Under the pieces are notes generated by a model. It searched no databases and was not told the origin of the DNA. It saw nothing but the letters and a program-made list of their open reading frames with translations. Source: a virus (lineage: Duplodnaviria > Heunggongvirae > Uroviricota > Caudoviricetes). From it: DNA of 64,000 nucleotides. Of the stretch, positions 2,639 to 49,715 are shown in pieces (position 1 is the stretch's first letter; the number at the start of each line of letters is the position of its first letter). The translations under genes were made by a program, and so were the position numbers. The stretch lies in IMG/VR virus record IMGVR_UViG_3300035498_001143; one strand, given 5' to 3'.

Positions 2639-3391
2639 ATGAAAGTTTTAAAAAGATTATTACCAATTATATTTATTTTAATATTATGGGGTATAGGTAG
2701 TTTATTTACAAAACCTTTATTCTTACCATCGCCAATAAAAGTATTTAATACATTTATCTCTTTATTACAAAATGGTATGTTAGTAAAAGGATTTGTATAT
2801 TCATTTATGAGAATATCTATTGCAACATTATTATCAATGTCTATAAGTGTTATTTTATCTATTTTAATTATGAATAGTAAGGTAATTGATGATTTAATGA
2901 CACCTATAACGAATTTTTTAAGATATTTACCTATTACAGCATTTTATCCGTTGTTGATGATGTGGTGTGGAATAAACGAAAGAATGAAAATAAGTTTTTT
3001 ATTCTTAGCAACTTTTGTTTATTTTTTACCTACATTAGTTTTAACAATGAAAGATATAGACCAAAATCTAATAGATACGGCATTAACAATAGGAGTTAAG
3101 AAATATCAATTAGTATACAGAATAATCCTACCTTATTGCTTACCTGTTATTTGTAAAACCTATTTAATGATGTATGGAATTGGTTGGACTTATATAGTAA
3201 TTGCCGAAACGGTAAATGCTAAATTCGGGTTGGGGCATTTAATAAATGTTGCAACATCAAGAGGTAGAACAGACCAAGTATTTGTTGTATTGATAATAAT
3301 TATTTTATTTAGTTATTTGTTTGATACATTATGTTCTTATATAATTGAAAGAATATTTAAGTGGAAATATACAGGAAAGGAAGTAAAATAA
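2639..3391 (+). CDS. ABC transporter permease, NitT/TauT (SsuC/TauC-like) family
   Basis: Six predicted TM segments and an EAA-like loop (ALTIGVKKYQLVYRIILPYCLP) typical of binding-protein-dependent permeases. Confidence 0.8.
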   Translation: MKVLKRLLPIIFILILWGIGSLFTKPLFLPSPIKVFNTFISLLQNGMLVKGFVYSFMRISIATLLSMSISVILSILIMNSKVIDDLMTPITNFLRYLPITAFYPLLMMWCGINERMKISFLFLATFVYFLPTLVLTMKDIDQNLIDTALTIGVKKYQLVYRIILPYCLPVICKTYLMMYGIGWTYIVIAETVNAKFGLGHLINVATSRGRTDQVFVVLIIIILFSYLFDTLCSYIIERIFKWKYTGKEVK

Positions 3392-7882: not shown

Positions 7883-8149
7883 ATGTTGAGATTAACAACA
7901 AAAGGGAAAATTGCCATTTTAATTTTGCTTTTAATTATTATTGGCGTAGCAGGATTTTTTGGTGTAAAAAAAGGTTGGATAAAGACAGGTAATATTAAAG
8001 AAAAGATTGAAAATATTACTTCTTCTGTTGGTTCAACAAGTAAGGCAAGTAAGAGTAAAACAACGCAAGAAAAGACCAATGTAATCAATTTATCTTATGA
8101 TGAATGGGTTGAATCTACGTCAGTCAGCCCCCTCTTTGTAGTAATACAG
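7883..8149 (+). CDS. exon 1 of a membrane-anchored SsuA/NMT1-like substrate-binding protein fused to an OmpA C-terminal domain
   Basis: N-terminal TM anchor, then a Ser/Thr linker, then ...NLSYDEW...PLFVVIQ. The frame stops 2 codons later inside the inserted element. Confidence 0.6.
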
Positions 8150-9944
8150 AGTTGAACAAGTTTTTTACGTGCTGAAAAATCTTAAAGTCAATCAAACTAC
8201 AACATAATTAGAAATAATAAGTGTGAATGTTACGAAAGTAGAAAAAATTGATTGAATGGAATATGGTGAAATAAAAGCTAATATATAAACATTTATATAT
8301 TAGTCCTAAGTTCTTTTAATAATAGGTAATCAGCAATTAAATATCTAAATAAAATCAATTATTTTATATGATATGGATTCAACGACTATTCTTGAAAAAG
8401 ACAATGGAAATTTGTCAATAGAAGTAGGACCTAAGTAGGTAGGTGAAATCCCTTTAAATCGAAATGGAAAGATAGTATTTTTACTATGATGATATAGTCT
8501 GTTCTTATATGAGAGTATAAGATTTATAATAAAACATTATAAAAACTAAATATATATTTAACTTTTTCACCTTTTTTCTATATAAGAAATATAGGAGGTG
8601 AAAAATAATGATATATATGGGATTTAAAACCAAAATATATCCCACAAAAGAACAAATTGAATATTTTAATAAATGTTTTGGAATAGATAGATTTGTTTTT
8701 AATTGGTATCTTTACAATGATAAAAAGTATTATGCTCAAGGAAATCGACAATCTTATTATGATTTAAGAGAAAAATTAATTCAATTAAAGCATACTCCAA
8801 AATTTAATTGGTTAATGACAGCAAATGATAGAATTTTGAATTGTTCGATGAAAAATGCTAAAATGGGACTTGACAAGTTCTTTAAAAAGCTTAATAGATA
8901 TCCAAATTATAAAACAAAGAAATCGAAAAATAAAAGTTTCTCTTGTGAAAGATGTTTAATAGATTCAAATTCTACTAAATTGAAAAGATTTAAGCATTTG
9001 TTTAATGGATTTCATTTTTATATTGCAGGAGAACAAGAAGAAGGAAAACGTAGTGCTAATGGATATTTTATAAAAACAGCGGAAGATATTACTTTTTTAA
9101 AAAATAAAACTATTAAAAAAATTACAATATCTTACGATGGAATAGATTATTATGTAAGTTTTTCTTATGAAAATAGCATTATTGACTATAATGGTCATAT
9201 TGTTGATGTTGTAGGTATAGATTTAGGGCTGAAAAAATATTCAGTTCAATCTGATAACCGAATAACAGTATTTCCCAAACAAAGGGTTTTTAAGTTAGAG
9301 AAAAGAATTAAAAGATTAAGAAGTATATTAAATAAAAAGGAAAAGGGAAGTAATAACTATAATAAAGTGAAAACCAAACTTAGAAAAAGTTATAGAAAGA
9401 TTACGAATATAGTTTTGGACTTTTTACATAAATATACTACTTATATATGTAAAACCTATAAAACAATTAAAATAGAAGATTTGACGATTAAAAAAATGCT
9501 AAAAAATCACAATCTTGCAAAAGCAATTCATCGTAGTTGTTGGAGAAAATTTAGAAATATGCTTCAATATAAATCGTTGTTATATAATAATAATTTGATT
9601 ATAGTTGATAGCTATTTTCCATCAAGTAAAACGTGTTATTATTGTAGAAATAAAAAGCAAGATTTAAAATTATCGGATAGAATTTACCATTGTAATGTAT
9701 GTGGTTATGAAAACGATAGAGATTTAAACGCAGCATATAATTTAAGAGAGTGGATATAATAAATAACTTATACTAAGAAAAGTTATTATTACCTTGGTTA
9801 AAGGAATTAAGAATTTGTTTTAATTATAAAGAGTAATTATTAAATTAATTATTACTTATATATTAGTTAAATGAATTTAGTTAATTTTTTATTTTGTTTT
9901 TATATGAAAATTATTAAATAACGAATAATAATTAACAAGACAGG
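8150..9944 (+). mobile_element. IStron: group I ribozyme module (5') fused to an IS605/IS1341-family TnpB element (3'); boundaries +/- 3 nt
   Basis: Group I core elements Q (AATCAGCAA, 8328-8336), R (TTCAACGACTAT) and S (GATATAGTCTG) lie in the 450-nt ORF-less 5' part. The tnpB ORF follows, and subterminal RE-like hairpins (agtaattatt...aattattact) sit near the 3' end, which ends in G. The host reading frame resumes in phase at 9945. Confidence 0.65.
8608..9759 (+). CDS. tnpB: TnpB (IS605 OrfB / IS1341-type RuvC-like RNA-guided nuclease)
   Basis: 383 aa. N-terminal MxxGFKxKxYPTKEQ typical of OrfB. C-terminal C4 zinc finger CYYC...CNVCG and a terminal RuvC-III-like DRDLNAAYNL. Confidence 0.85.
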   Translation: MIYMGFKTKIYPTKEQIEYFNKCFGIDRFVFNWYLYNDKKYYAQGNRQSYYDLREKLIQLKHTPKFNWLMTANDRILNCSMKNAKMGLDKFFKKLNRYPNYKTKKSKNKSFSCERCLIDSNSTKLKRFKHLFNGFHFYIAGEQEEGKRSANGYFIKTAEDITFLKNKTIKKITISYDGIDYYVSFSYENSIIDYNGHIVDVVGIDLGLKKYSVQSDNRITVFPKQRVFKLEKRIKRLRSILNKKEKGSNNYNKVKTKLRKSYRKITNIVLDFLHKYTTYICKTYKTIKIEDLTIKKMLKNHNLAKAIHRSCWRKFRNMLQYKSLLYNNNLIIVDSYFPSSKTCYYCRNKKQDLKLSDRIYHCNVCGYENDRDLNAAYNLREWI

Positions 9945-11270
9945 GGCTGGCGTGAAATTGTTGAAGCTCAAACAAGAGGTTATTATGATGAAGAAGGTAT
10001 TACTGTTAATATCAGTGTAATGAATGATGCTACTGATAGTTCTAATGCTTTAATTAGTGGAGATTTAGATGCAGCAGGTTATACTGTTAATAGATATGCT
10101 TTTTTAATGGATAAATTCAAGCAGAACAATGTTGATGTTGCAATGCCTATTATTATTAATAGAAGTAGTGGTGGTGATGGCATTATTGCTGATGCTGATA
10201 TCAATTCTATTAAAGATTTAGTAGGTAAAAAAGTTGGTGTTCCAAGATTTAGTGAAGCACAAACTTTAGTTGAATGGTTTGTTTCTAAGTCTGATTTAAC
10301 AGACGATGAAAAGAGTAAAATAGAATATGTATATTTTGATACACCTGACGAAGCTGCAAGTGCTTATTTCGCAGGTGAAATAAATGCTGCTGCTACTTGG
10401 CAACCATATTTAGCACAAGCACAAGAAAGTACAGATAGTCATATTCTTATTGATACAAGCAATGCTACAAGCCTTGTATTGGACGGTATTGTGTTTAGAC
10501 AGGATTATCTTGATGTAAATGCTGATACAGTTGAGAAGTTCATTAGAGCTACTTTAAAGGCTTATGATGATTACAACGATACTGATTATACAGCATTAAG
10601 AAATAATATGTCTATGTTTTCAAGTATGAGTGATGAAGAAATTGCTGATACATTACCTGATGCAACATTGTTAAATTGGAATGAAAATATGGAAGTATTA
10701 GCCGATGAAGCTGTTATTCTTTATAGAGATATGTCTAATATCTGGAATGATTTAGGAGAAACAGCTTATCCTGATATGGCAGAACAAGCATTTACTACTA
10801 CATATATGAGTGCTTGTGAAGATTTAAAAACTGCTGATATAAAAACTGTTTCAGTTACAGCAGAACAAAAGGAAGAAGTTAAGAATAACTCAGATAATTA
10901 TGATGCTTTAATAAATGCACAAGCAACAATTAACTTTAAGCCTAATTCAGCAGTATTTGCAGACCAAGAAGAAGCTGCTAAAGCATTAGACGAATTTGTT
11001 GATACGGCAAAAATGCTTGATGGTGCAATTATTATGATTGAGGGTAACTCAGCTAATACAAATGGTGCTACTGAAAATAGTGAGTTTGATATTAAGCTTA
11101 CCGAACAAAGAGCTAAGACTGTTGCTAATTATTTCATCAGTAAAGGTATTGATAATTCAAGATTTATTACAGTTGGTAATGGTATTGGTAATCAGATAGC
11201 TGATAACTCTACAGAAGAAGGTAGAGCTAAGAACAGAAGAACTGATATTAAATTTATTATAGCTGAATAA
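9945..11270 (+). CDS. exon 2 of the SBP-OmpA fusion: SsuA/NMT1-like periplasmic binding domain plus OmpA/MotB peptidoglycan-binding domain
   Basis: GWREIVEAQTRGYYDEEGITVNI matches the conserved N-terminal strand of the NMT1/SsuA fold. The C-terminal 110 aa carry the OmpA_C pattern NFKPNSAVF...LTEQRAKTV..Y...GI...R....G.G......EGRAKNRR. The reading frame is open from 9936. Confidence 0.65.
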   Translation, partial: GWREIVEAQTRGYYDEEGITVNISVMNDATDSSNALISGDLDAAGYTVNRYAFLMDKFKQNNVDVAMPIIINRSSGGDGIIADADINSIKDLVGKKVGVPRFSEAQTLVEWFVSKSDLTDDEKSKIEYVYFDTPDEAASAYFAGEINAAATWQPYLAQAQESTDSHILIDTSNATSLVLDGIVFRQDYLDVNADTVEKFIRATLKAYDDYNDTDYTALRNNMSMFSSMSDEEIADTLPDATLLNWNENMEVLADEAVILYRDMSNIWNDLGETAYPDMAEQAFTTTYMSACEDLKTADIKTVSVTAEQKEEVKNNSDNYDALINAQATINFKPNSAVFADQEEAAKALDEFVDTAKMLDGAIIMIEGNSANTNGATENSEFDIKLTEQRAKTVANYFISKGIDNSRFITVGNGIGNQIADNSTEEGRAKNRRTDIKFIIAE

Positions 11271-21706: not shown

Positions 21707-22091
21707 GTAGCCTAAAGGCAGAAACTCCCTATTAAGTAGTAATATTTAATAGAAAATTTCTTTAATTGCTGGAAGTTCCTAAAATTAATTATACTATTAA
21801 AATGTTTAATAGTTGCGAAAGTAGAAAAAAATAATTAAACGATATATGGTGATAGTAAACCTAAGTATTATAAGAAATAATAATTTCTAAAAATGGATAA
21901 TCAGCAACAAAATATATAAATAAAAAATATATATGTTCAACGACTATGCTTTAAAAGCAGTAGGATAAAAGTTTATCCGAAATGGGAAAATACTTAATGT
22001 TTAAGTATATGATATAGTCTATGCACTAATGAAAGTTAGTGAAAAACTAAATGTTTTTATTATAGTTTAACAAACTATGGTTAATGTAATT
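21707..22091 (+). ncRNA. ORF-less group I intron (subgroup IA-like) in gyrB
   Basis: P AATTGCTGGAAG (21763-21774) and Q AATCAGCAAC (21900-21909) form a 7-bp P4. R GTTCAACGACTATGC and S ATGATATAGTCTATGC form P7. A CTCC internal guide 18-21 nt into the intron pairs with exon GGAG. The intron ends in G. Excision restores EG|DSAGG in frame. Confidence 0.7.
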
Positions 22092-22160
22092 AGATTCTGC
22101 TGGTGGTTCTGCAAAGAACGCAAGATATAGAGAATTTCAAGCTATATTGCCATTAAGAGG
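22092..22160 (+). CDS. gyrB: gyrB exon 2 (24-aa micro-exon with toprim DSAGGSAK...LPLRGK)
   Basis: Encodes [23 protein letters not shown](K), the universally conserved toprim DxD/acidic segment of GyrB. Confidence 0.75.
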
Positions 22161-22471
22161 TAAAGGATTTGCCTCTACATTTCTAACTGTTTAATATAAC
22201 AGGGTATGCTTAAAAACGATTTAAATGCGTTTTGAAGCTTGCTAACGAGGAAAGCTTAACATTATACATATAAGTCAAAATATGTTCAGGTGAAGTCAAT
22301 CTCGTGCGAAATATAGCGATTTAATAATTGCTGTTCGTGTATCGACTATCCTAAGTTAGATTAGGAGTACAGGTTTTATAAAACTTGGAAATGGAATGAC
22401 CGTTTTAAAAAGTTTGACAAACTTATAGGTTAAGAAATAGTCAGTGCTATTAGAAATAATAGATTATAATG
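22161..22471 (+). ncRNA. second intervening sequence in gyrB, probably a self-splicing intron of uncertain class
   Basis: 311 nt with stops in all frames. The upstream exon ends in U and the element ends in G, as expected for group I. GACTA (22349-22353) and TAGTC (22436-22440) could form P7, but no clear P/Q. Excision joins RGK|ILNTEKA in frame. Confidence 0.45.
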
Positions 22472-25365: not shown

Positions 25366-25439
25366 TCTCCTAAAAGTTTATTTATTTCTTCCAATCTTGC
25401 AAGTAACTTGTTCTTTTCTTCGATAAGTTTATCTCTATC

Positions 25440-25599
25440 ATTTACTTTCCAATATATTAGTATTAATACGAACTATGAGAAATTTTATGTTGAGGGTACA
25501 GCGACATTTACTTTCCAATATATTAGTATTAATACCCTTTAATGATATATTGATTTGATTATCATTTGTATTTACTTTCCAATATATTAGTATTAATAC
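25440..25599 (-). CRISPR. mini CRISPR-like array A: 3 identical 30-nt repeats, spacers of 36 and 34 nt; transcribed leftward from the leader at 25600-26034
   Basis: Repeat ATTTACTTTCCAATATATTAGTATTAATAC at 25440-25469, 25506-25535 and 25570-25599. The minus-strand form GTATTAATACTAATATATTGGAAAGTAAAT ends in ...GTAAAT like clostridial type I-B repeats. The spacers are unique. Confidence 0.55.
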
Positions 25600-26034
25600 A
25601 CGTTCAGTATACAGCAGTATTTTTTATCGATATTTCAAATACCAATATTGTCGAACCTATTGAAAAGTTGATTTCAAACATTATTCTTTATTCATCATTT
25701 ACTTTATTCTCACAAAAACATAAGTAAACAAAGTGTTTTCAAACTTTCTGTCTATCTCTTAGTAATTTTACATTACTATACATCGACAGAATTGAAAAAC
25801 TAAAAAAATAAAAAGTATTCATACCATATATTGAATTTGGTGAGTGGTGGGCTACTACTCGTCATTTTTGGTGTAGTCTTAAAATTCTACAGCGGTGTTG
25901 AACTGTATGTGATATGAGTTACCCTCACCCTACGGACGGCAAATCGCCCGAAGTCACCAATTAAGGTGCTTATAAAAAAATGATTTTAAAAACTTACAAT
26001 ATTATAATATCACAACTACTTTTATTTGTCAAGT
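25600..26034 (-). promoter_or_regulatory. conserved ~430-bp CRISPR leader with distal consensus promoter (TTGACA 26032-26027, TATTAT 26009-26004, minus strand) and a proximal TTGAAA/TATACT-like promoter next to the first repeat
   Basis: About 90 percent identical to 42549-42990, which follows array B. Contains a 9-bp inverted repeat (aattctgtc/gacagaatt) and a GC-rich segment. Confidence 0.5.
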
Positions 26035-26100
26035 GTTTTTTAGTAATTTTATGGTTTAATTTGTTTATTATTTAAATAAAAAATATAAGGAGTAATTGAA

Positions 26101-32117: not shown

Positions 32118-33215
32118 ATGATTAATTTAATAAATGGTGATTGTCTTGAAAAAATGAAAGATATACAAGATAAGTCAATAGATTTAATTCTGTGCGATTT
32201 GCCTTATGGTACTCAAAAAAGTAATGGTTGTAAATGGGATATAATTATTCCTTTTGACAAACTATGGGAGCAATATAATAGAATCATAAAAGATGATGGT
32301 GCTATTGTTTTATTCGGAAAAGAACCTTTTAGTTCTTTATTAAGAGCGAGTAATTTAAATATGTATAAATATGATTGGATATGGAGTAAAGATACCAAGA
32401 GTAATTTTATGCAGTGTAATTATCAACCATTAAATAATTTGGAATGTATATCTGTGTTTTCAAAGGCTTACGCAAGAGAAATAAAAGATAAAGTAAAAAT
32501 GAAATACAATCCTCAATTTTCAGAGGGAGATAGTTATAAACTCCCAAAAGAAAGTAGTACGACAGAAATATTTAGTTCTAATCATAAAAACGGTAAATAC
32601 ATACATAAAGATAGAGATACATCAAAAAGATACCCATATAATACATTATTCTTTAATTCTGTAAAAGGAAAAGAAAAAATACATCCTACACAAAAACCAA
32701 TTGATTTATTAGAGTATTTAATAAAAACATATACAGATGAAAATGATTTAGTATTAGATAACTGTATGGGAAGTGGAAGTACAGGTATTGCTTGTATTAA
32801 TACTAATAGAAATTTTATAGGAATAGAAAAAGATATTGATTTTTATATAAAGGCGAGTAATAGAATAGAAGACCATAAAAATAGCATTTTATTAACTCAA
32901 GCAGTAAATGTAACTATTGATTGTATTAACGAAGATTATGAAGAATATGATGAAAATTACAATGAAGAAAATATTCAAGATTTTGAAATAAATTGTTTTG
33001 AATTGCCTAAACGTGATATTGATGATATTGCAGGAAATGAAATACAATTAGGAAATAATTATTTTTTTCGAGAACCTGAACAATTAGATAAAGTAGAATT
33101 TATTTCGTTTAAAAAACCTGATGATGAATATTTAGAACCACTTAATTCTGAAAGATTTGAAAATATTTTTGTAAAAGAAAGGTTTTATGAAGAAAAACCT
33201 TTAGAAAGGAAATAA
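32118..33215 (+). CDS. N4/N6 DNA methyltransferase, beta class, with acidic C-terminal extension
   Basis: N-terminal DLILCDLPYGT (catalytic) and C-terminal HPTQKP...DNCMGSGSTGIAC (SAM binding), the circularly permuted beta order. Confidence 0.75.
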   Translation: MINLINGDCLEKMKDIQDKSIDLILCDLPYGTQKSNGCKWDIIIPFDKLWEQYNRIIKDDGAIVLFGKEPFSSLLRASNLNMYKYDWIWSKDTKSNFMQCNYQPLNNLECISVFSKAYAREIKDKVKMKYNPQFSEGDSYKLPKESSTTEIFSSNHKNGKYIHKDRDTSKRYPYNTLFFNSVKGKEKIHPTQKPIDLLEYLIKTYTDENDLVLDNCMGSGSTGIACINTNRNFIGIEKDIDFYIKASNRIEDHKNSILLTQAVNVTIDCINEDYEEYDENYNEENIQDFEINCFELPKRDIDDIAGNEIQLGNNYFFREPEQLDKVEFISFKKPDDEYLEPLNSERFENIFVKERFYEEKPLERK

Positions 33216-33233
33216 TTAGAAAGGAAACAAAGA

Positions 33234-33917
33234 ATGAAATTATATAATAAAGATTGTTTAGAAGTTTTAAATAGATTAGAAGATAATTCAATTGACTTAT
33301 TGATTACTGACCCACCATATCCTGTAACATCAAGAGGCTCTGCAGGTAATAGCGGTGGTATGATGCAGAAAGATGTAAATAAAAAAGGTAAGGTTTTTCA
33401 ATTTAATGATATTAAATGTGAAGATTATGCACCTGAATTTTTTAGAATATTAAAAGACGGTAGCCATTGTTATGTAATGACTAATCACGTTAATTTAATT
33501 AATATGCTTAATACTTTTACTAATTGTGGTTTTCATTTTATTAAATGCTTAATTTGGAATAAAGGCAATAAGATTATGGGTCAGTATTATATGTCACAAT
33601 TTGAATACATACTCTTTTTTAGAAAAGGCAAAGGCGTAAAAATAAATAATTGTGGTACATCTGATATTTTATCTATTCCTAATAAAAAGAAAAAAGATGA
33701 GAATGGAAAGAACTTGCACGATACAGAAAAACCAGTTGAGCTTATGGAAATATTAGTTGGTAATTCAAGTAAAGAAAATGATACAGTTATTGACCCATTT
33801 ATGGGGATTGGTGCAACAGGAGTTGCTTGCAAAAATTTAAATAGAGATTTTATAGGCGTTGAATTAGATGAACATTATTTTAATATTGCCAAAGATAGGA
33901 TAAATAAAGGGGAGTAA
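33234..33917 (+). CDS. N4/N6 DNA methyltransferase, beta class
   Basis: DLLITDPPY then HDTEKP...DPFMGIGATGVAC. Confidence 0.75.
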   Translation: MKLYNKDCLEVLNRLEDNSIDLLITDPPYPVTSRGSAGNSGGMMQKDVNKKGKVFQFNDIKCEDYAPEFFRILKDGSHCYVMTNHVNLINMLNTFTNCGFHFIKCLIWNKGNKIMGQYYMSQFEYILFFRKGKGVKINNCGTSDILSIPNKKKKDENGKNLHDTEKPVELMEILVGNSSKENDTVIDPFMGIGATGVACKNLNRDFIGVELDEHYFNIAKDRINKGE

Positions 33918-42330: not shown

Positions 42331-42400
42331 ATGTAAGTTTTTATCTATAAATATTAATATTTTTTGTATACTAATATTTAAAAAACAATCTGTCAAATTG

Positions 42401-42548
42401 ATTTACTTTCCAATATTTCAATATTAATACCTTAAAAACAACTTAAAAAAACAGATTACCTCGAATTTACTTTTCAATATAGTAGCATTAATACTTTGGT
42501 GATTACACAAACAGTACATTTACTTTCCAACATATTAGTATCAATACC
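42401..42548 (-). CRISPR. mini CRISPR-like array B: 3 diverged copies of the same 30-31-nt repeat, spacers of 34 and 23 nt
   Basis: Repeats at 42401-42431, 42466-42495 and 42519-42548 match array A at 24-27 of 30 positions. It is followed by the same conserved leader (42549-42990). Confidence 0.4.
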
Positions 42549-42978
42549 CGTTTAGTATGCAGTAGTACATTTTATTAGTATTTCAAATACTAAATCTGTC
42601 GAACTCATTGAAAAAGTTAATTTCGAATATTATTTTTTATCCATTATTTACTTTATTCTCACAAGAACATAAGTAAATAAAGTGTTTTCAAAATTCTGTC
42701 TATCTCTTAGCAATTTTACACTACTATACATCGACAGAATTTAAAAACTAAAAAAATAAAAAGTATTTATACTATATATTGAATTTGGTGAGTGGTTGGC
42801 TTCTTCCGTCAAAGCGGTGCAAGTCTTAAAATTCTACAGCAGTGTTGAACTGTATGTGATATGAATTACCCTCACCCTACGGACGGCAAATCGCCCGAAG
42901 TCACCAATTAAAGTGCTTATAAAAATAGTTCTTAAAAACTTACAATATTATAATAACATATTATTTTCTGTTTGTCAA
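42549..42978 (-). promoter_or_regulatory. second copy of the conserved CRISPR leader with distal minus-strand promoter (TTGACA 42978-42973, TATTAT 42955-42950)
   Basis: About 90 percent identity to 25600-26034, including the inverted repeat and the GC-rich segment. Confidence 0.5.
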
Positions 42979-43024
42979 GTATTTTTTATTAGAAAAATAA
43001 ATTTTAAGAGATGAGTGTGATTTA

Positions 43025-45907: not shown

Positions 45908-45932
45908 GTGAATAACTTTCTAAGGGAAAAAA

Positions 45933-46693
45933 TGATGAATGAGTATGAATTGTATAATGATGATTGTTTAGAACAAATGAAAAATATTGATGATAAATCT
46001 ATTGATTTGATATTAACTGATTTGCCATACGGTACTACTAATTGTAAGTGGGATTCAATTATACCATTAGATTTATTATGGGAACAATATAATAGAATTA
46101 TTAAAGATAATGGAGCGATTCTTTTGTTTGCACAAACACCATTTGATAAGATATTGGGTTGTTCTAATTTAAAAATGCTGAGATATGAATGGATATGGGA
46201 AAAGACACAAGCAACAGGACATTTCAATGCTAAGAAAATGCCTATGAAAGCCCACGAAAACATATTAGTATTTTATAAAAAATTGCCTACATACAATCCT
46301 CAAAAAATCCAAGGGTGTAAGCCTGCACACGGAGCTGTAAGAAAAGCAGAAGTTGGTAACAAAACACAAATATATGGAAAAGTAAAAGAAGATTCTGTTT
46401 ATGAAGGTGGTAATACAGATAGATACCCTCGTTCTGTAATAATATTTGCTTCCGATAAACAAACTTGTTGTTTACACCCTACACAAAAGCCTGTTGCTTT
46501 ATGTGAATATTTAATTAAAACATATTCTAATGAAAATGATATAGTCTTGGATAGCTGTATGGGGAGTGGAACTACAGGAATAGCTTGTTTAAATACTAAT
46601 AGAAAATTCATAGGAATTGAAAAAGAAAAACAATATTTTGATATAGCTAAAAAAAGAATTGATGATTTTTTAAAGGAGAAAAACATTGAGTAA
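45933..46693 (+). CDS. N4/N6 DNA methyltransferase, beta class (paralog 1)
   Basis: DLILTDLPYGTT then HPTQKPVALCEYLI...DSCMGSGTTGIAC. Confidence 0.75.
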
Positions 46694-47438
46694 TTATGAA
46701 ATTTACAATGATGATTGTTTAGAAAAAATGAAAGATATTTCTGATGAAAGTATAGATATGATTCTTTGTGATTTGCCTTATGGAACAACAGCTTGTAAAT
46801 GGGATATAATTATCCCTTTCAATAAGTTATGGGAACAGTATGAAAGAATAATAACGAATACAGGTGTAATTTGTTTATTCGGACAAGAACCATTTTCAAG
46901 TATGTGTAGAATGAGTAATTTAAATTTATATAGATATGATTATGTATGGCAAAAACAAAAACCAAGTAATTTTCAATTGATGAATTATCAATGTGGTAGA
47001 GTTCACGAAAATATAATGATTTTTAGTAAAGCAAAGGCTTGTTATACTAAAAATGGTGCTAAAATAAATTATTTTCCAATAATGGAAAAAAGAGAAAAAG
47101 TAAGAAAAGCTAATGCTAAAATTTATAATAATGGTAAAGCAGACTTATTACATAATTACAAAACAGAAGATAATTTCAAAACCTATGAAGAAAAACACCC
47201 TATTTCTATTTTAAAATTTAACGCAGTAGAGCATAGAGTTCATCCAACTCAAAAGCCTATTGATTTATTAGAATATCTAATTAAAACATTTACTAAAGAG
47301 AATATGACTGTATTAGATAATTGTATGGGTAGTGGTAGTACGGGTGTTGCTTGTTTAAATATAAATAGGAATTTCATAGGGATAGAGAAAGAGAAGAAAT
47401 ATTTTGATATCGCAAAGGACAGATTAAAAGATGTTTGA
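46686..47438 (+). CDS. N4/N6 DNA methyltransferase, beta class (paralog 2)
   Basis: DMILCDLPYGTT then HPTQKPIDLLEYLI...DNCMGSGSTGVAC. Confidence 0.75.
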   Translation: MSNYEIYNDDCLEKMKDISDESIDMILCDLPYGTTACKWDIIIPFNKLWEQYERIITNTGVICLFGQEPFSSMCRMSNLNLYRYDYVWQKQKPSNFQLMNYQCGRVHENIMIFSKAKACYTKNGAKINYFPIMEKREKVRKANAKIYNNGKADLLHNYKTEDNFKTYEEKHPISILKFNAVEHRVHPTQKPIDLLEYLIKTFTKENMTVLDNCMGSGSTGVACLNINRNFIGIEKEKKYFDIAKDRLKDV

Positions 47439-48183
47439 AAATTGTAATTATGAATTATTTCACGGTGATTGTTTAGAGGTAATGAATAATTTAATAAATA
47501 ATAATATAAAAGTTGATTTAATTTTAACAGATTTACCTTATGAAACAACAAAATGTAAATGGGACATTTTAATTCCTTTTGAAGATTTATGGGATAGATA
47601 TAATAAATTAACAGAAGATAATACACCTATTGTTTTATTTGGGCAAGAACCTTTTAGCTCTTTATTAAGAACAAGTAATTTAGAAAATTACAAGTATGAT
47701 ATTTATTGGGAAAAAGAAAGATTAACTAATATAAATCAAGTTAAAAAAAGAGTAGGAAAAACTGTTGAAACTATTTCTATCTTTTATAAAAAACAATGTA
47801 TTTACAATCCTCAAATGATTAAATATGATGGTAAACCGAGAAGTAATAAAGTAAAGAATGGTAAATTAGGAAAATTAACTGATGATAATGAAAAGAAAGT
47901 ATTTGAATATAAAGATACAGGGTGGAGATATCCTACACAAGTTTGGAAATATCAAAGAGATTGTCTAACTTCTAATTTACATCCTACTCAGAAACCAATT
48001 AAGTTATTAGAAGATTTAATAAAAACTTTCTCTAACGAAAATGCAATCGTATTAGATTCTTGTATGGGTTCAGGTAGCACAGGAGTTGCCTGTTTAAATA
48101 CTAATAGAAAATTTATAGGCATAGAGAAAAATGATGAATATTTTGATATAGCAAAGAAAAGAATTGAGGAGCTTGTTTTATGA
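47431..48183 (+). CDS. N4/N6 DNA methyltransferase, beta class (paralog 3)
   Basis: DLILTDLPYETT then HPTQKPIKLLEDLI...DSCMGSGSTGVAC. Confidence 0.75.
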   Translation: MFENCNYELFHGDCLEVMNNLINNNIKVDLILTDLPYETTKCKWDILIPFEDLWDRYNKLTEDNTPIVLFGQEPFSSLLRTSNLENYKYDIYWEKERLTNINQVKKRVGKTVETISIFYKKQCIYNPQMIKYDGKPRSNKVKNGKLGKLTDDNEKKVFEYKDTGWRYPTQVWKYQRDCLTSNLHPTQKPIKLLEDLIKTFSNENAIVLDSCMGSGSTGVACLNTNRKFIGIEKNDEYFDIAKKRIEELVL

Positions 48184-48929
48184 AATATTTTGGTAGTAAA
48201 AGTAGAATAGCAAAACAAATAATACCCATAATTCAGGAGTACATTGATAAGGGTAATTTTGATACATATATTGAGCCTTTTTGTGGCGGTGCAAATGTAA
48301 TAGATAAAATAGATTGTAAAAATAAAATTGGTTATGATTTAAACAAATATTTAATTGCATTATTAAATTATGTAAAAGACGGTGGAGAATTATATTCATC
48401 AGTAGATAAAGATTTATATGATAAAGCAAGAACAGCTTTTTATAATGATGACAATTCCACATTTACTGATTGGCAAATTGGTAATATTGGTTTTCTTGCT
48501 TCTTATAATGGTCGTTTTTATGATGGTGGTTATGCAAAGCCCGTATATGAAAAAACTAAAAAGGGCACAAGATATCGTGATTATTACAAAGAGGGTAAAG
48601 ATAATTTACTTAATCAAGCCCCTGATTTGAAAGATGTTAAATTTATAAATAAAGATTATAAAGATATAATTCTTCCTGATGATTGTTTAGTATATTGTGA
48701 CCCACCGTATAAGAATACTAAAAAGTTTTACATAGATAAGAATTTTGATTATGATGCTTTTTGGAATAAAATAAGAGAATGGAGTAAAGACCATATTGTT
48801 TTAGTTAGTGAACAAGAAGCACCTAATGATTTTGTTTCTATATGGGAAAAAGATGTAAATAGAAGTATTAATGTTAATAACAAATTTAGTGCAACTGAAA
48901 ATATGTTCATACATAAAAGTTTAACGTGA
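48180..48929 (+). CDS. Dam-like (D12-class) N6-adenine DNA methyltransferase
   Basis: YFGSKSRIAK...YIEPFCGGANV and VYCDPPY. Confidence 0.75.
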   Translation: MKYFGSKSRIAKQIIPIIQEYIDKGNFDTYIEPFCGGANVIDKIDCKNKIGYDLNKYLIALLNYVKDGGELYSSVDKDLYDKARTAFYNDDNSTFTDWQIGNIGFLASYNGRFYDGGYAKPVYEKTKKGTRYRDYYKEGKDNLLNQAPDLKDVKFINKDYKDIILPDDCLVYCDPPYKNTKKFYIDKNFDYDAFWNKIREWSKDHIVLVSEQEAPNDFVSIWEKDVNRSINVNNKFSATENMFIHKSLT

Positions 48930-48938
48930 GGAAAAATA

Positions 48939-49715
48939 ATGGAAATAAATAAAGTTTATAATATGGATTGTTTAGAGTTATTAAAAACAATAGATAAAAA
49001 TTCAATAGATTTAATTCTTATAGACCCACCATATTTAATTAGTCGTGATAGTCATTTTACCCAAGGTGCTAAAAATGATGAAATGAAAAGTAAATATGGA
49101 AAACATAAAATAGATTTTGGTGATTGGGATAAAGGAGAATTAAATCTTCAAAACATATTATCTGAAAGTTATAGAATATTAAAAGACAATGGTACTTTAA
49201 TAATGTTTTATGATTTTTGGAAAATGCAAGAAGTAAAAGAAACTGCTGAACAAATAAAATTTAAGCAACCAAGGTTAGGTATATTTAATAAAACTAATCC
49301 TGTACCTGTAAATGCTAAAATTAATTATTTATCTAATGCGAAAGAATTTTTTGTTACTTTTGTAAAGAAGTCAAAACCAACTTTTAATTCTTATTACGAT
49401 AATGCAGAATATTATTTATCTGAAAATTCAGAAGAAGCAGATACATATTATTTTCCAATAGTACACGGTAAAGAAAGAACTAAACACCCTACTCAAAAAC
49501 CATTATCTTTAATAAAAGATTTAATAAAGAAACATAGTAATGAAGATGATATAGTATTAGATTTCTTTGCAGGTAGTGGTACAACAGGAGTAGCTGCTTC
49601 TGAATTAAATAGAAATTATATATTATGTGAAATAAATAAAGAATATTATGAAATAATCAAAGAAAGATTATCTAAAGAAGAATTATCCAAAAAACCTTCT
49701 AAAGATATAAATTAA
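48939..49715 (+). CDS. N4/N6 DNA methyltransferase, beta class
   Basis: DLILIDPPY then HPTQKPLSLIKDLI...DFFAGSGTTGVAA. Confidence 0.75.
   Translation: MEINKVYNMDCLELLKTIDKNSIDLILIDPPYLISRDSHFTQGAKNDEMKSKYGKHKIDFGDWDKGELNLQNILSESYRILKDNGTLIMFYDFWKMQEVKETAEQIKFKQPRLGIFNKTNPVPVNAKINYLSNAKEFFVTFVKKSKPTFNSYYDNAEYYLSENSEEADTYYFPIVHGKERTKHPTQKPLSLIKDLIKKHSNEDDIVLDFFAGSGTTGVAASELNRNYILCEINKEYYEIIKERLSKEELSKKPSKDIN

Follow-up and report, generated by a model that had tools for sequence, protein, structure and literature searches.

The 64-kb stretch of the IMG/VR virus record IMGVR_UViG_3300035498_001143 (Caudoviricetes) analysed here, called the window below, raises the question of what interrupts its gene for an NMT1/SsuA-like binding protein with an OmpA domain and where exactly the interruption begins and ends. 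A preliminary description had noted an insert of about 1.8 kb in this gene and had read it as an IStron. IStrons unite self-splicing, transposition and RNA-guided cutting in one sequence and are used for studies of the competition between guide RNA and intron. Our analysis indicates that positions 8110-9943 are most probably an element of this type, that is, a group IA2-like intron with an intact tnpB gene and a structured tail in its 3' periphery, residing inside the phage gene. Independent covariance models, the relationship to an annotated IStron such as CbISt4 and uninterrupted homologues of the host gene all speak for this reading. The gene, the element and its parts all lie on the + strand; a slash marks a splice junction and related loci are designated by L numbers.

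The interrupted gene and its probable splice sites

The host gene had been split by gene callers. Its left piece is an open reading frame (ORF) of 90 amino acids (aa) at 7883-8155, starting at 7883. About 450 nucleotides (nt) without an ORF separate it from the next ORF, tnpB, at 8608-9759, and the frame of the right piece is open from 9921, preceded by the AT-rich tail of about 185 nt that follows tnpB. Pfam places both the NMT1/THI5-like and the OmpA domain on the downstream piece. The database search returned 734 relatives of the host gene, and no interruption is seen in the closest three (P0002-P0004; 67-68% identity, 510-515 aa). The joined protein is also matched as a single piece across the break by gp249 of Bacillus phage G, whose gp245-249 are distantly syntenic with the window, and by a human-gut phage contig. 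The possibility that homologues would reveal two separate genes was thus checked and one gene was found: as judged from these alignments, the two pieces are parts of a single gene for a membrane-anchored NMT1/SsuA-like and OmpA protein, as had been proposed. Exon 1 (7883-8109) encodes an N-terminal membrane helix and a linker and ends in ...INLSYDEW plus GU. Exon 2 (9944-11270) begins with G followed by GGC UGG, reads GWREIVEAQ... and continues into the NMT1 and then the OmpA domain, as indicated by Pfam and by gapless homologue alignment across the junction. Both exons keep an open frame with 67% identity to full-length homologues. Recognition of the element restores a predicted spliced product of 517 aa, of which public databases hold only a 416-aa fragment.

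Originally, the junctions had been placed at 8149/9945. Deletion of 8150-9944 is indeed in frame but leaves 13 residues (ESTSVSPLFVVIQ, 8111-8149) without counterpart in any of the roughly 115 homologues that cover the region among the best 120 of the 734. On the left, the window reads ...INLSYDEW, V, then ESTSVSPLFVVIQ and a stop, the unspliced frame continuing from exon 1 into the intron up to the stop at 8153-8155; on the right it reads GWREIVEAQ.... All of the covering homologues have DEW-x-G-(W/Y/F) or DEF-x-GW with exactly one x (I, V, A or S). Because the residues of ESTSVSPLFVVIQ lack a counterpart, the true 5' junction should lie at the codon after Trp. The sequence DEWVGW is produced only by joining U8109 to G9944 or U8110 to G9945, and joining G8108 to G9946 yields DEWGW, which occurs in no homologue. 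Positions 8111-8149 were rejected as exon; they belong instead to the intron, whose guide sequence, P1 and P2 hairpin they form.

The 3' end was fixed by relatives. Six distinct elements, the one in the window included, finish in TTAACAnnACAG and then diverge at once, the following bases being GGGCTGG in the window and TACCCTA, AACGTTT, TGGGCAA, TTCCATA and GCCAGGG in the other five. A seventh relative, L013, has the terminus ACGG.

At the 5' end, a P1 helix of 7 bp (8106-8130) contains the splice site and the internal guide sequence occupies 8116-8130. The exon side is paired by G8106-C8130, G8107-C8129, G8108-C8128 and U8109-G8127 and the intron side by U8110-A8126, G8111-C8125 and A8112-U8124, so that U8109, the last base of the 5' exon, forms a U-G wobble with G8127; the intron closes with G9943 (omega-G). 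Changes in the 5' flank of relatives are matched by changes in the guide sequence (GGGU/GCCC, GGUU/GACC, GGAU/GUCC and GAGGU/GCCUC, flank and guide being separated here by the slash). The guide is complementary to both exons. Its strand at 8116-8125 pairs with exon 2 at 9945-9954 to form P10, in which 10 of 10 pairs are made (7 Watson-Crick, 3 G-U) and the first lies one base past the 3' splice site; 9945-9954 is the sole 10-mer on the + strand of the window that fully pairs with 8116-8125. The register of P10 is canonical and the same as in T1, another group I intron of the window described below: intron position +1 is paired, exon-2 position +1 is unpaired and P10 follows. P1 is followed by a P2 hairpin (8134-8151; 7 bp, GUAA tetraloop), which has homologues with compensatory changes in L014b, L007b and T1.

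A homologous P1-P2 module (...AGCCCCTCTTTATAGTAATATAAAGA vs ...AGCCCCCTCTTTGTAGTAATACAGAG) is present in the terminase intron of L007 and L014, which is located at ATGGGT/. The empty allele of that site, found in L005, reads ATGGGT/GGTGCG and therefore assigns the U to the exon. As a separate observation, the reconstructed target of the window element, GAATGGGT/GGGCTGG (8099-8109 plus 9944-9952), and the terminase site, CCAATGGGT/GGTGCG (L005, approximately 1852-1866), have AATGGGT/GG in common. Together with the P1-P2 module common to both introns, this hints at ectopic movement between similar sites.

Since four independent constraints agree, namely frame and spacing, the 3' terminus, P1 and the related empty allele, the junctions 8109/8110 and 9943/9944 are better supported than 8149/9945, and the predicted intron comprises 8110-9943 (1834 nt), with the frame restored to DEWVGW. 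Its 5' site thereby lies 40 nt and its 3' site 1 nt upstream of the original placement. The predicted ligated junction is GAUGAAUGGGU/GGGCUGGCG, also written GAUGAAUGGGU/GGGCUGGCGUG, and the ligated-exon complementary DNA (cDNA) would read GGGUGGGC. A 5' exon ending in G, paired with a CUG guide about 23 nt into the intron, had also been suggested; the CUG is part of the P4 strand GUGCUG and the exon ends with U8109. The ACAG taken for the exon end is the 3' strand of the P2 hairpin and was discarded in that role.

The same element could be spliced in another register, which we consider unlikely. One such register resembles that of group B IStrons (IS607-type), with the exon ending in G8108, an intron from U8109 to G9945 and the product DEWGW; the other is shifted by one base in the opposite sense (U8110/...G9944/) and gives DEWVGW with the codon GUU. 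For the former speaks the TGGG before U8109, as found at targets of IS607-type IStrons, and both group B elements and T1 are spliced 5' of a U; its product is, however, one residue short of all of the roughly 115 homologues. The U8110 register makes the same protein as U8109 and its guide can pair with the ligated exons in an unbroken run of 15 pairs, which counts against our placement, but it puts U-A rather than U-G at the cleavage site and requires an extra base past the terminus that is conserved in relatives. The cDNA expected is GGGUUGGC for the U8110 register and GGGGCUGG for the one like group B. A combination of the G8108 site with the conserved ACAG terminus as 3' site was dismissed, as it is out of frame.

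Ribozyme core, TnpB and 3' tail

Two covariance models, R1 and R2, were built from relatives alone without any window sequence and were then searched against the 64-kb window. Model R2 (7 relatives) matched 8155-8340 over its full length with 62.4 bits (E 5.4e-10) and covers the 5' core domain with P4, nested P5/P6, the P strand GUGCUG and the Q element AAUCAGCA. Model R1 (11 relatives) matched 8373-8532, likewise over its full length, with 54.3 bits (E 4.2e-9); this 3' core domain holds the R element/P7, P7.1, P7.2, P8, the S element/P7' and P9, and both P7.1 and P7.2 are enlarged by insertions. By RNAalifold, 20 of 27 pairs of one custom model and 17 of 35 of the other show compensatory changes. 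Jointly, R2 and R1 span the group I core from P4 to P9, with all conserved core elements and helices intact. Hairpins P7.1 and P7.2, typical of IA2 introns, are present. The three core motifs quoted in the preliminary description were found at 8328, 8378 and 8491 and are the Q, R and S elements of the classical group I core. Moreover, the window core aligns along its whole length with related introns retrieved via TnpB homologues, and it resembles, at the nucleotide level, introns of Staphylococcus Twort-like phages as well as CbISt4 of the Clostridium phages c-st and D-1873, which is annotated in GenBank as "Group I catalytic intron" followed by "transposase". By these comparisons, the 5' part of the element is a group IA2-like ribozyme core for which self-splicing is predicted.

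The tnpB gene (8608-9759; 383 aa) starts 76 nt past the end of the R1 match at 8532, downstream of P9, and is intact. Its assignment, already made from the sequence alone, is borne out by three Pfam domains (HTH_OrfB_IS605, OrfB_IS605 and Cas12f1-like_TNB) and by the NCBIfam model guided_TnpB (231 bits, cut-off 100). ISDra2 TnpB (PDB 8bf8/8exa) aligns from end to end (E 1.5e-38). In the best PDB match, 9yyg, an artificial intelligence-designed RNA-guided nuclease, GIDLG, IEDL and DRDLNAA are aligned to GVDLG, VEDL and DRDENAA and both CxxC pairs are kept. TnpB thus retains, on alignment, the catalytic (RuvC D-E-D) and zinc-binding residues, and with its three Pfam domains it has the HTH/WED-REC architecture. 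A 10-bp hairpin detected by repeat search (8563-8605; 8563-8572 with 8596-8605) partly buries the Shine-Dalgarno sequence GGAGGT (8594-8599) and probably sequesters the tnpB ribosome-binding site.

The IS605-family label, in contrast to the tnpB assignment, could not be established. NCBIfam did not separate IS200/IS605-type from IS607-type TnpB, as the known IS607-type TnpB of CbISt4 has the same score pattern; the termini match neither group. Within 8110-9943 tnpB is the only ORF of at least 60 aa on the + strand, and TnpA was searched for inside the element only. Without TnpA the element is non-autonomous, unable to transpose on its own, and its IS family cannot be established. Many catalogued IStrons also lack ORF A (PMC4227781), so that the missing TnpA is compatible with membership of the IStrons.

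Downstream of tnpB, a structured 3' tail (9760-9943) would provide the omega RNA scaffold and the right end. It contains three hairpins, two just past the tnpB stop (9763-9769/9780-9786 and 9792-9795/9801-9804) and the terminal one (9910-9916/9926-9932), which is the subterminal hairpin anticipated earlier and is separated by 11 nt from the 3' end. The element closes with the dodecamer TTAACAAGACAG (9932-9943), which ends in the omega-G and is invariant in six aligned elements. The tail hairpins recur with differing sequences in L005, L007, L008, L011, L013 and L014; when the 3' tails of six elements were folded jointly with RNAalifold, a single hairpin was recovered. A candidate inverted repeat, long and AU-rich, encloses the ORF region (8517-8563 with 9879-9914), as published for group B IStrons (PMC4227781); the repeat search gave 26 nt with 85% complementarity. 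In the window alone it was not significant by an ungapped-helix test (30 of 200 shuffles) and was no better than shuffled sequences by RNAduplex (-30.2 vs -25.2 +/- 4.3). Arms at equivalent positions in CbISt4 and L013 were significant (0 of 200 shuffles).

Of the IStron interpretation, the ribozyme, TnpB, the tail and the in-frame rejoining of the exons have stood, and the splice positions, the G-ending exon and the IS605 label have not. Several observations weigh against the interpretation itself. The evidence for splicing is comparative. Searches of metagenome and viral contigs for an intron-less allele of this phage found none; the metagenome part of this negative result is weak, since a control pattern known to occur in JGI contigs escaped the scan as well. 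Rfam at gathering thresholds gave no match in the whole window, RF00028 included, and with E-value thresholds over 2.4 kb it returned noise only. In a 501-nt search, the RF00028 check that had been proposed yielded a partial match at 8464-8519 (P8-P7'-P9) with 19.2 bits (E 0.014), short of the gathering threshold of 50, even though the core domains match the custom models. We attribute this failure to large AU-rich insertions in P6, P7.1 and P7.2. Four of the relatives reach 51-74 bits with RF00028 (among them L014b with 69.8, L007a with 51.3 and L014c with 51.1) and a fifth, L007b, 49.7. The tail is matched by no omega-type family of Rfam, RAGATH-18 included, and it is not specific to TnpB-bearing copies, the same 3' tail being found on ORF-less introns of related contigs. 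Finally, no dinucleotide is common to the flanks GGGT ... ACAG, which also differ from the T-rich motif of the IS605 type, so that this site gives no evident sign of DNA transposition by a TnpA of either known type.

The RF00028 score well under threshold and the AU-rich insertions would also fit a ribozyme that has lost splicing, the binding-protein gene then being a pseudogene split by a dead mobile element. We regard this as very improbable, for both custom models find every conserved core element and helix preserved, TnpB is intact, P1 and P10 are precisely complementary to this site, and the exons keep their open frames and identity in a locus that is 99-100% conserved in four other samples.

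The observations on tail and flanks bear on another explanation, in which two elements are nested: an ordinary phage group I intron and, in its P9 periphery, a separate TnpB cassette whose right end lies near 9905, before the terminal hairpin. The TnpB guide would then be the conserved intron tail (AUUAUUAAAUAACGAAUAAUAA...) and not exon 2, and the cassette would spread or persist among cassette-less introns of the family. ORF-less introns with the window tail ...AACGAATAATAATTAACAAGACAG and a short link from P9 to the tail do exist (L008a, L056-L059). In the same vein, similar short direct repeats, ATTTATAA at about 8521 and TTTTATATGAA at about 9896, flank the cassette, a TTTATAA-like motif reminiscent of IS605 targets precedes it, and no recombination dinucleotide is common to the 5' flank and the 3' end of the whole element. 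Yet transposon ends, splice sites and the end of the omega RNA scaffold coincide in experimentally studied IStrons, and ORF-less copies are known to arise from IStrons via deletion between such repeats (PMC4227781). Many introns with near-identical tails stay empty in related intron-rich phage contigs (not shown to be the window's genome), and if one genome held both kinds, the cassette-less introns would be targets of self-cleavage or conversion. We consider nested elements quite unlikely, because ORF-less copies are known deletion products and many of the introns remain empty; a single IStron-type element is the explanation we prefer.

Relatives and other features of the window

The window holds one copy of the element and no second copy of this same element was found. 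Four further metagenome contigs carry the same element in the same phage with 99.3-100% identity. TnpB relatives were found neither in representative bacterial and archaeal genomes nor, with a single-protein query, in viral contigs; the closest ones (47-60% identity) are all metagenomic. Every relative examined in this identity range lies behind a group I core inside a phage gene, the host sites being three different terminase sites and ribonucleotide reductase. In L011 (1-4216), the ribonucleotide-reductase gene is in at least five pieces, interrupted by inteins and group I introns, one of which carries the TnpB relative P0129. Three relatives have an ORF of 47-48 aa for a ribbon-helix-helix protein between core and tnpB (L007 2822-2965, L005 155-301 and L014 2322-2465), with weak matches to Pfam RHH_3, RHH_1 and CopG_antitoxin; the window element is without this ORF.

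The density of group I introns is unusually high for this intron family in the terminase region of the jumbo phages L059 and L058 (IMG/VR contigs of 151 and 379 kb; samples 3300043105 and 3300043080), where ten R1 matches with 47-116 bits lie within about 5 kb (L059 1428-6378, and L058). One ORF-less intron of this region finishes exactly in the window tail AACGAATAATAATTAACAAGACAG.

In CbISt4 of Clostridium phage D-1873 (L003), RAGATH-18 matches the 3' untranslated tail of tnpB at 3301-3370 with 61.7 bits, above threshold, and this match is probably part of the CbISt4 omega RNA. With TnpB at 30-38% identity, group A IStrons were recognised in 19 of 37 IMG/VR viral loci (L019-L054), the group I 3' domain lying 150-300 nt upstream of tnpB. 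Among these, 18 printed right ends are ...GGATGTCAG-like and 16 printed upstream flanks are of the TGAT or TTAT type. Group A IStrons are thus common in phage contigs.

Elsewhere in the window, two group I introns interrupt a GyrB/ParE-like topoisomerase gene. Intron T1 (21708-22093; 386 nt, no ORF) scores 117 bits with R1 and 115 bits with R2; its 5' splice site lies between G21707, the last exon base, and a U (LVEG/DSAGG), and an alignment of the spliced Toprim region to GyrB (PDB 4z2c) is gapless. Such a non-U 5' splice site is rare and otherwise described for group B IStrons; a G-ending exon applies to T1. Intron T2 (22162-22471; 310 nt) lies 68 nt downstream of T1 and has the canonical U22161 and omega-G22471 (LPLRGK/ILNTEKA; R1 33.6 bits, E 8e-5).

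The genome segment is AT-rich phage DNA in which TTGACA...TATAAT promoter-like boxes recur; a promoter and terminator scan gave a match count not above chance. A non-coding block of about 600 nt is duplicated at 25422-26045 and 42383-42991 (82-92% identity) and contains the 30-nt motif ATTTACTTTCCAATATATTAGTATTAATAC in three and two copies, respectively, at a spacing of 64-66 nt. Arrays of paralogous ORFs of about 250 aa, with 60-80% nucleotide similarity, occupy 32118-33917 and 45908-49715 and, judged by eye, look like DNA methyltransferase genes.

Proposed mechanism and comparison with known systems

What the element would do in the phage can be sketched from characterised IStrons, including that of C. 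botulinum, from which our proposals on splicing, omega RNA and homing are drawn (PMC4227781; bioRxiv 10.1101/2023.11.20.567912). The whole 1834 nt would be spliced from the host mRNA, giving the 517-aa protein and making the insertion of little cost to the phage. Unspliced transcripts would provide tnpB mRNA and omega RNA, for which the 3' tail would serve as scaffold and the first 16-20 nt or so of exon 2 (GGGCUGGCGUGAAAUU...) as guide. TnpB may then cut intron-less alleles (TGGGT plus the exon-2 target GGGCTGGCGTGAAATTGTTG), for example in a co-infecting phage, and repair or recombination after the cut would copy the element into them. Since every splicing event would part the scaffold from its guide, splicing and guide formation would compete and exclude each other. 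As the two alternative folds of such a switch, the local terminal hairpin and the long-range inverted repeat are plausible.

IStrons were described in 2000, and a survey of 2014 counted 294 copies, two of them in Clostridium phages (PMC4227781); their mechanistic dissection dates from 2023 onward (bioRxiv 10.1101/2023.11.20.567912). The kind of element is hence already known. Its termini (TGGGT/...ACAG/) are, by their sequence, outside both published groups, A and B.

With group B (IS607-type: BcISt1, CboIStron, CbISt4), the window element shares the 5' group IA2 intron, the tnpB gene past P9 and a G-rich 5' flank (TGGG...). Other common traits are a long AU-rich inverted repeat around the ORFs (in the window a candidate, not significant alone), a direct repeat beside its 3' arm, ORF-less derivatives and occurrence in phages, and there is direct nucleotide similarity between its intron core and that of CbISt4. 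In group B, however, G is the last base of the 5' exon and the U-G pair is displaced by one position, whereas the exon ends in U here, with a canonical U-G flanked by pairs. Group B elements follow a GG-ending site and end in CGG; the window element ends in ACAG and its flank and end have no GG dinucleotide in common. Furthermore, its TnpB has just 31% identity with that of CbISt4, RAGATH-18 matches the tail of CbISt4 but not that of the window element, and neither TnpA nor a TnpA remnant is present in the latter.

Group A (IS200/IS605-type: CdISt1, FnISt1) resembles it in the 5' exon ending in U in a continuous P1, the 3' ...CAG and the subterminal hairpin at the right end, and the top NCBIfam model of the window TnpB is of the IS200/IS605 type. 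The target of group A is, on the other hand, TTGAT, ATTAT or TTTAT and its end TCAG, compared with TGGGT and ACAG here, so that agreement is confined to U(-1) and CAG. The conserved right end of the group A copies in IMG/VR, GGAACC...GAGGATGTCAG, is missing from the window element, the inverted repeat of group A is short and balanced rather than long and AU-rich, and the TnpBs of these IMG/VR copies have just 30-38% identity with that of the window. Compared by description, CsISt1 of Clostridium sporogenes, a deviant member of group B that is inserted after AG and ends in CAG, has ORF B only and a CAG terminus like the window element; its pattern is also seen in L007b and L014c (after GGAG, end ACAG), whereas the window copy follows GGGT.

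The window element and those of L005, L007b, L008b, L011b and L014c could, as a tentative and so far doubtful proposition, form a third, phage-restricted IStron lineage without DNA transposition, in which TnpB has taken the role of a homing endonuclease. Traits that fit are the lack of TnpA in the lineage, the termini TTAACAnnACAG, the G-rich 5' flanks with compensatory guide changes and, at the site in the window, the exon-tailored 10-bp P10. If this were true, the target of the nuclease would be set by the exon adjoining the intron, in very intron-rich jumbo-phage genomes. In any case, the window provides a phage example that appears to keep only splicing and TnpB, both predicted. Its canonical U-G site adjoins a G-rich flank, and its long P10 shares sequence with the presumed guide target.

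The last comparison is with phage group IA2 introns that carry homing-endonuclease ORFs (Twort and T4 td type). They have in common with the window element the ribozyme class, with nucleotide similarity to the Staphylococcus Twort-like introns, an ORF in the 3' periphery, a hairpin at the ribosome-binding site of that ORF and a likely spread by cutting intron-less alleles in co-infection. Their nuclease is a protein-only enzyme of the GIY-YIG, HNH or LAGLIDADG type, in contrast to the RNA-guided TnpB of the window element, whose specificity would follow the flanking exon. If TnpB is active, it would represent a natural RNA-guided nuclease that serves as an intron homing enzyme in phage-phage competition.

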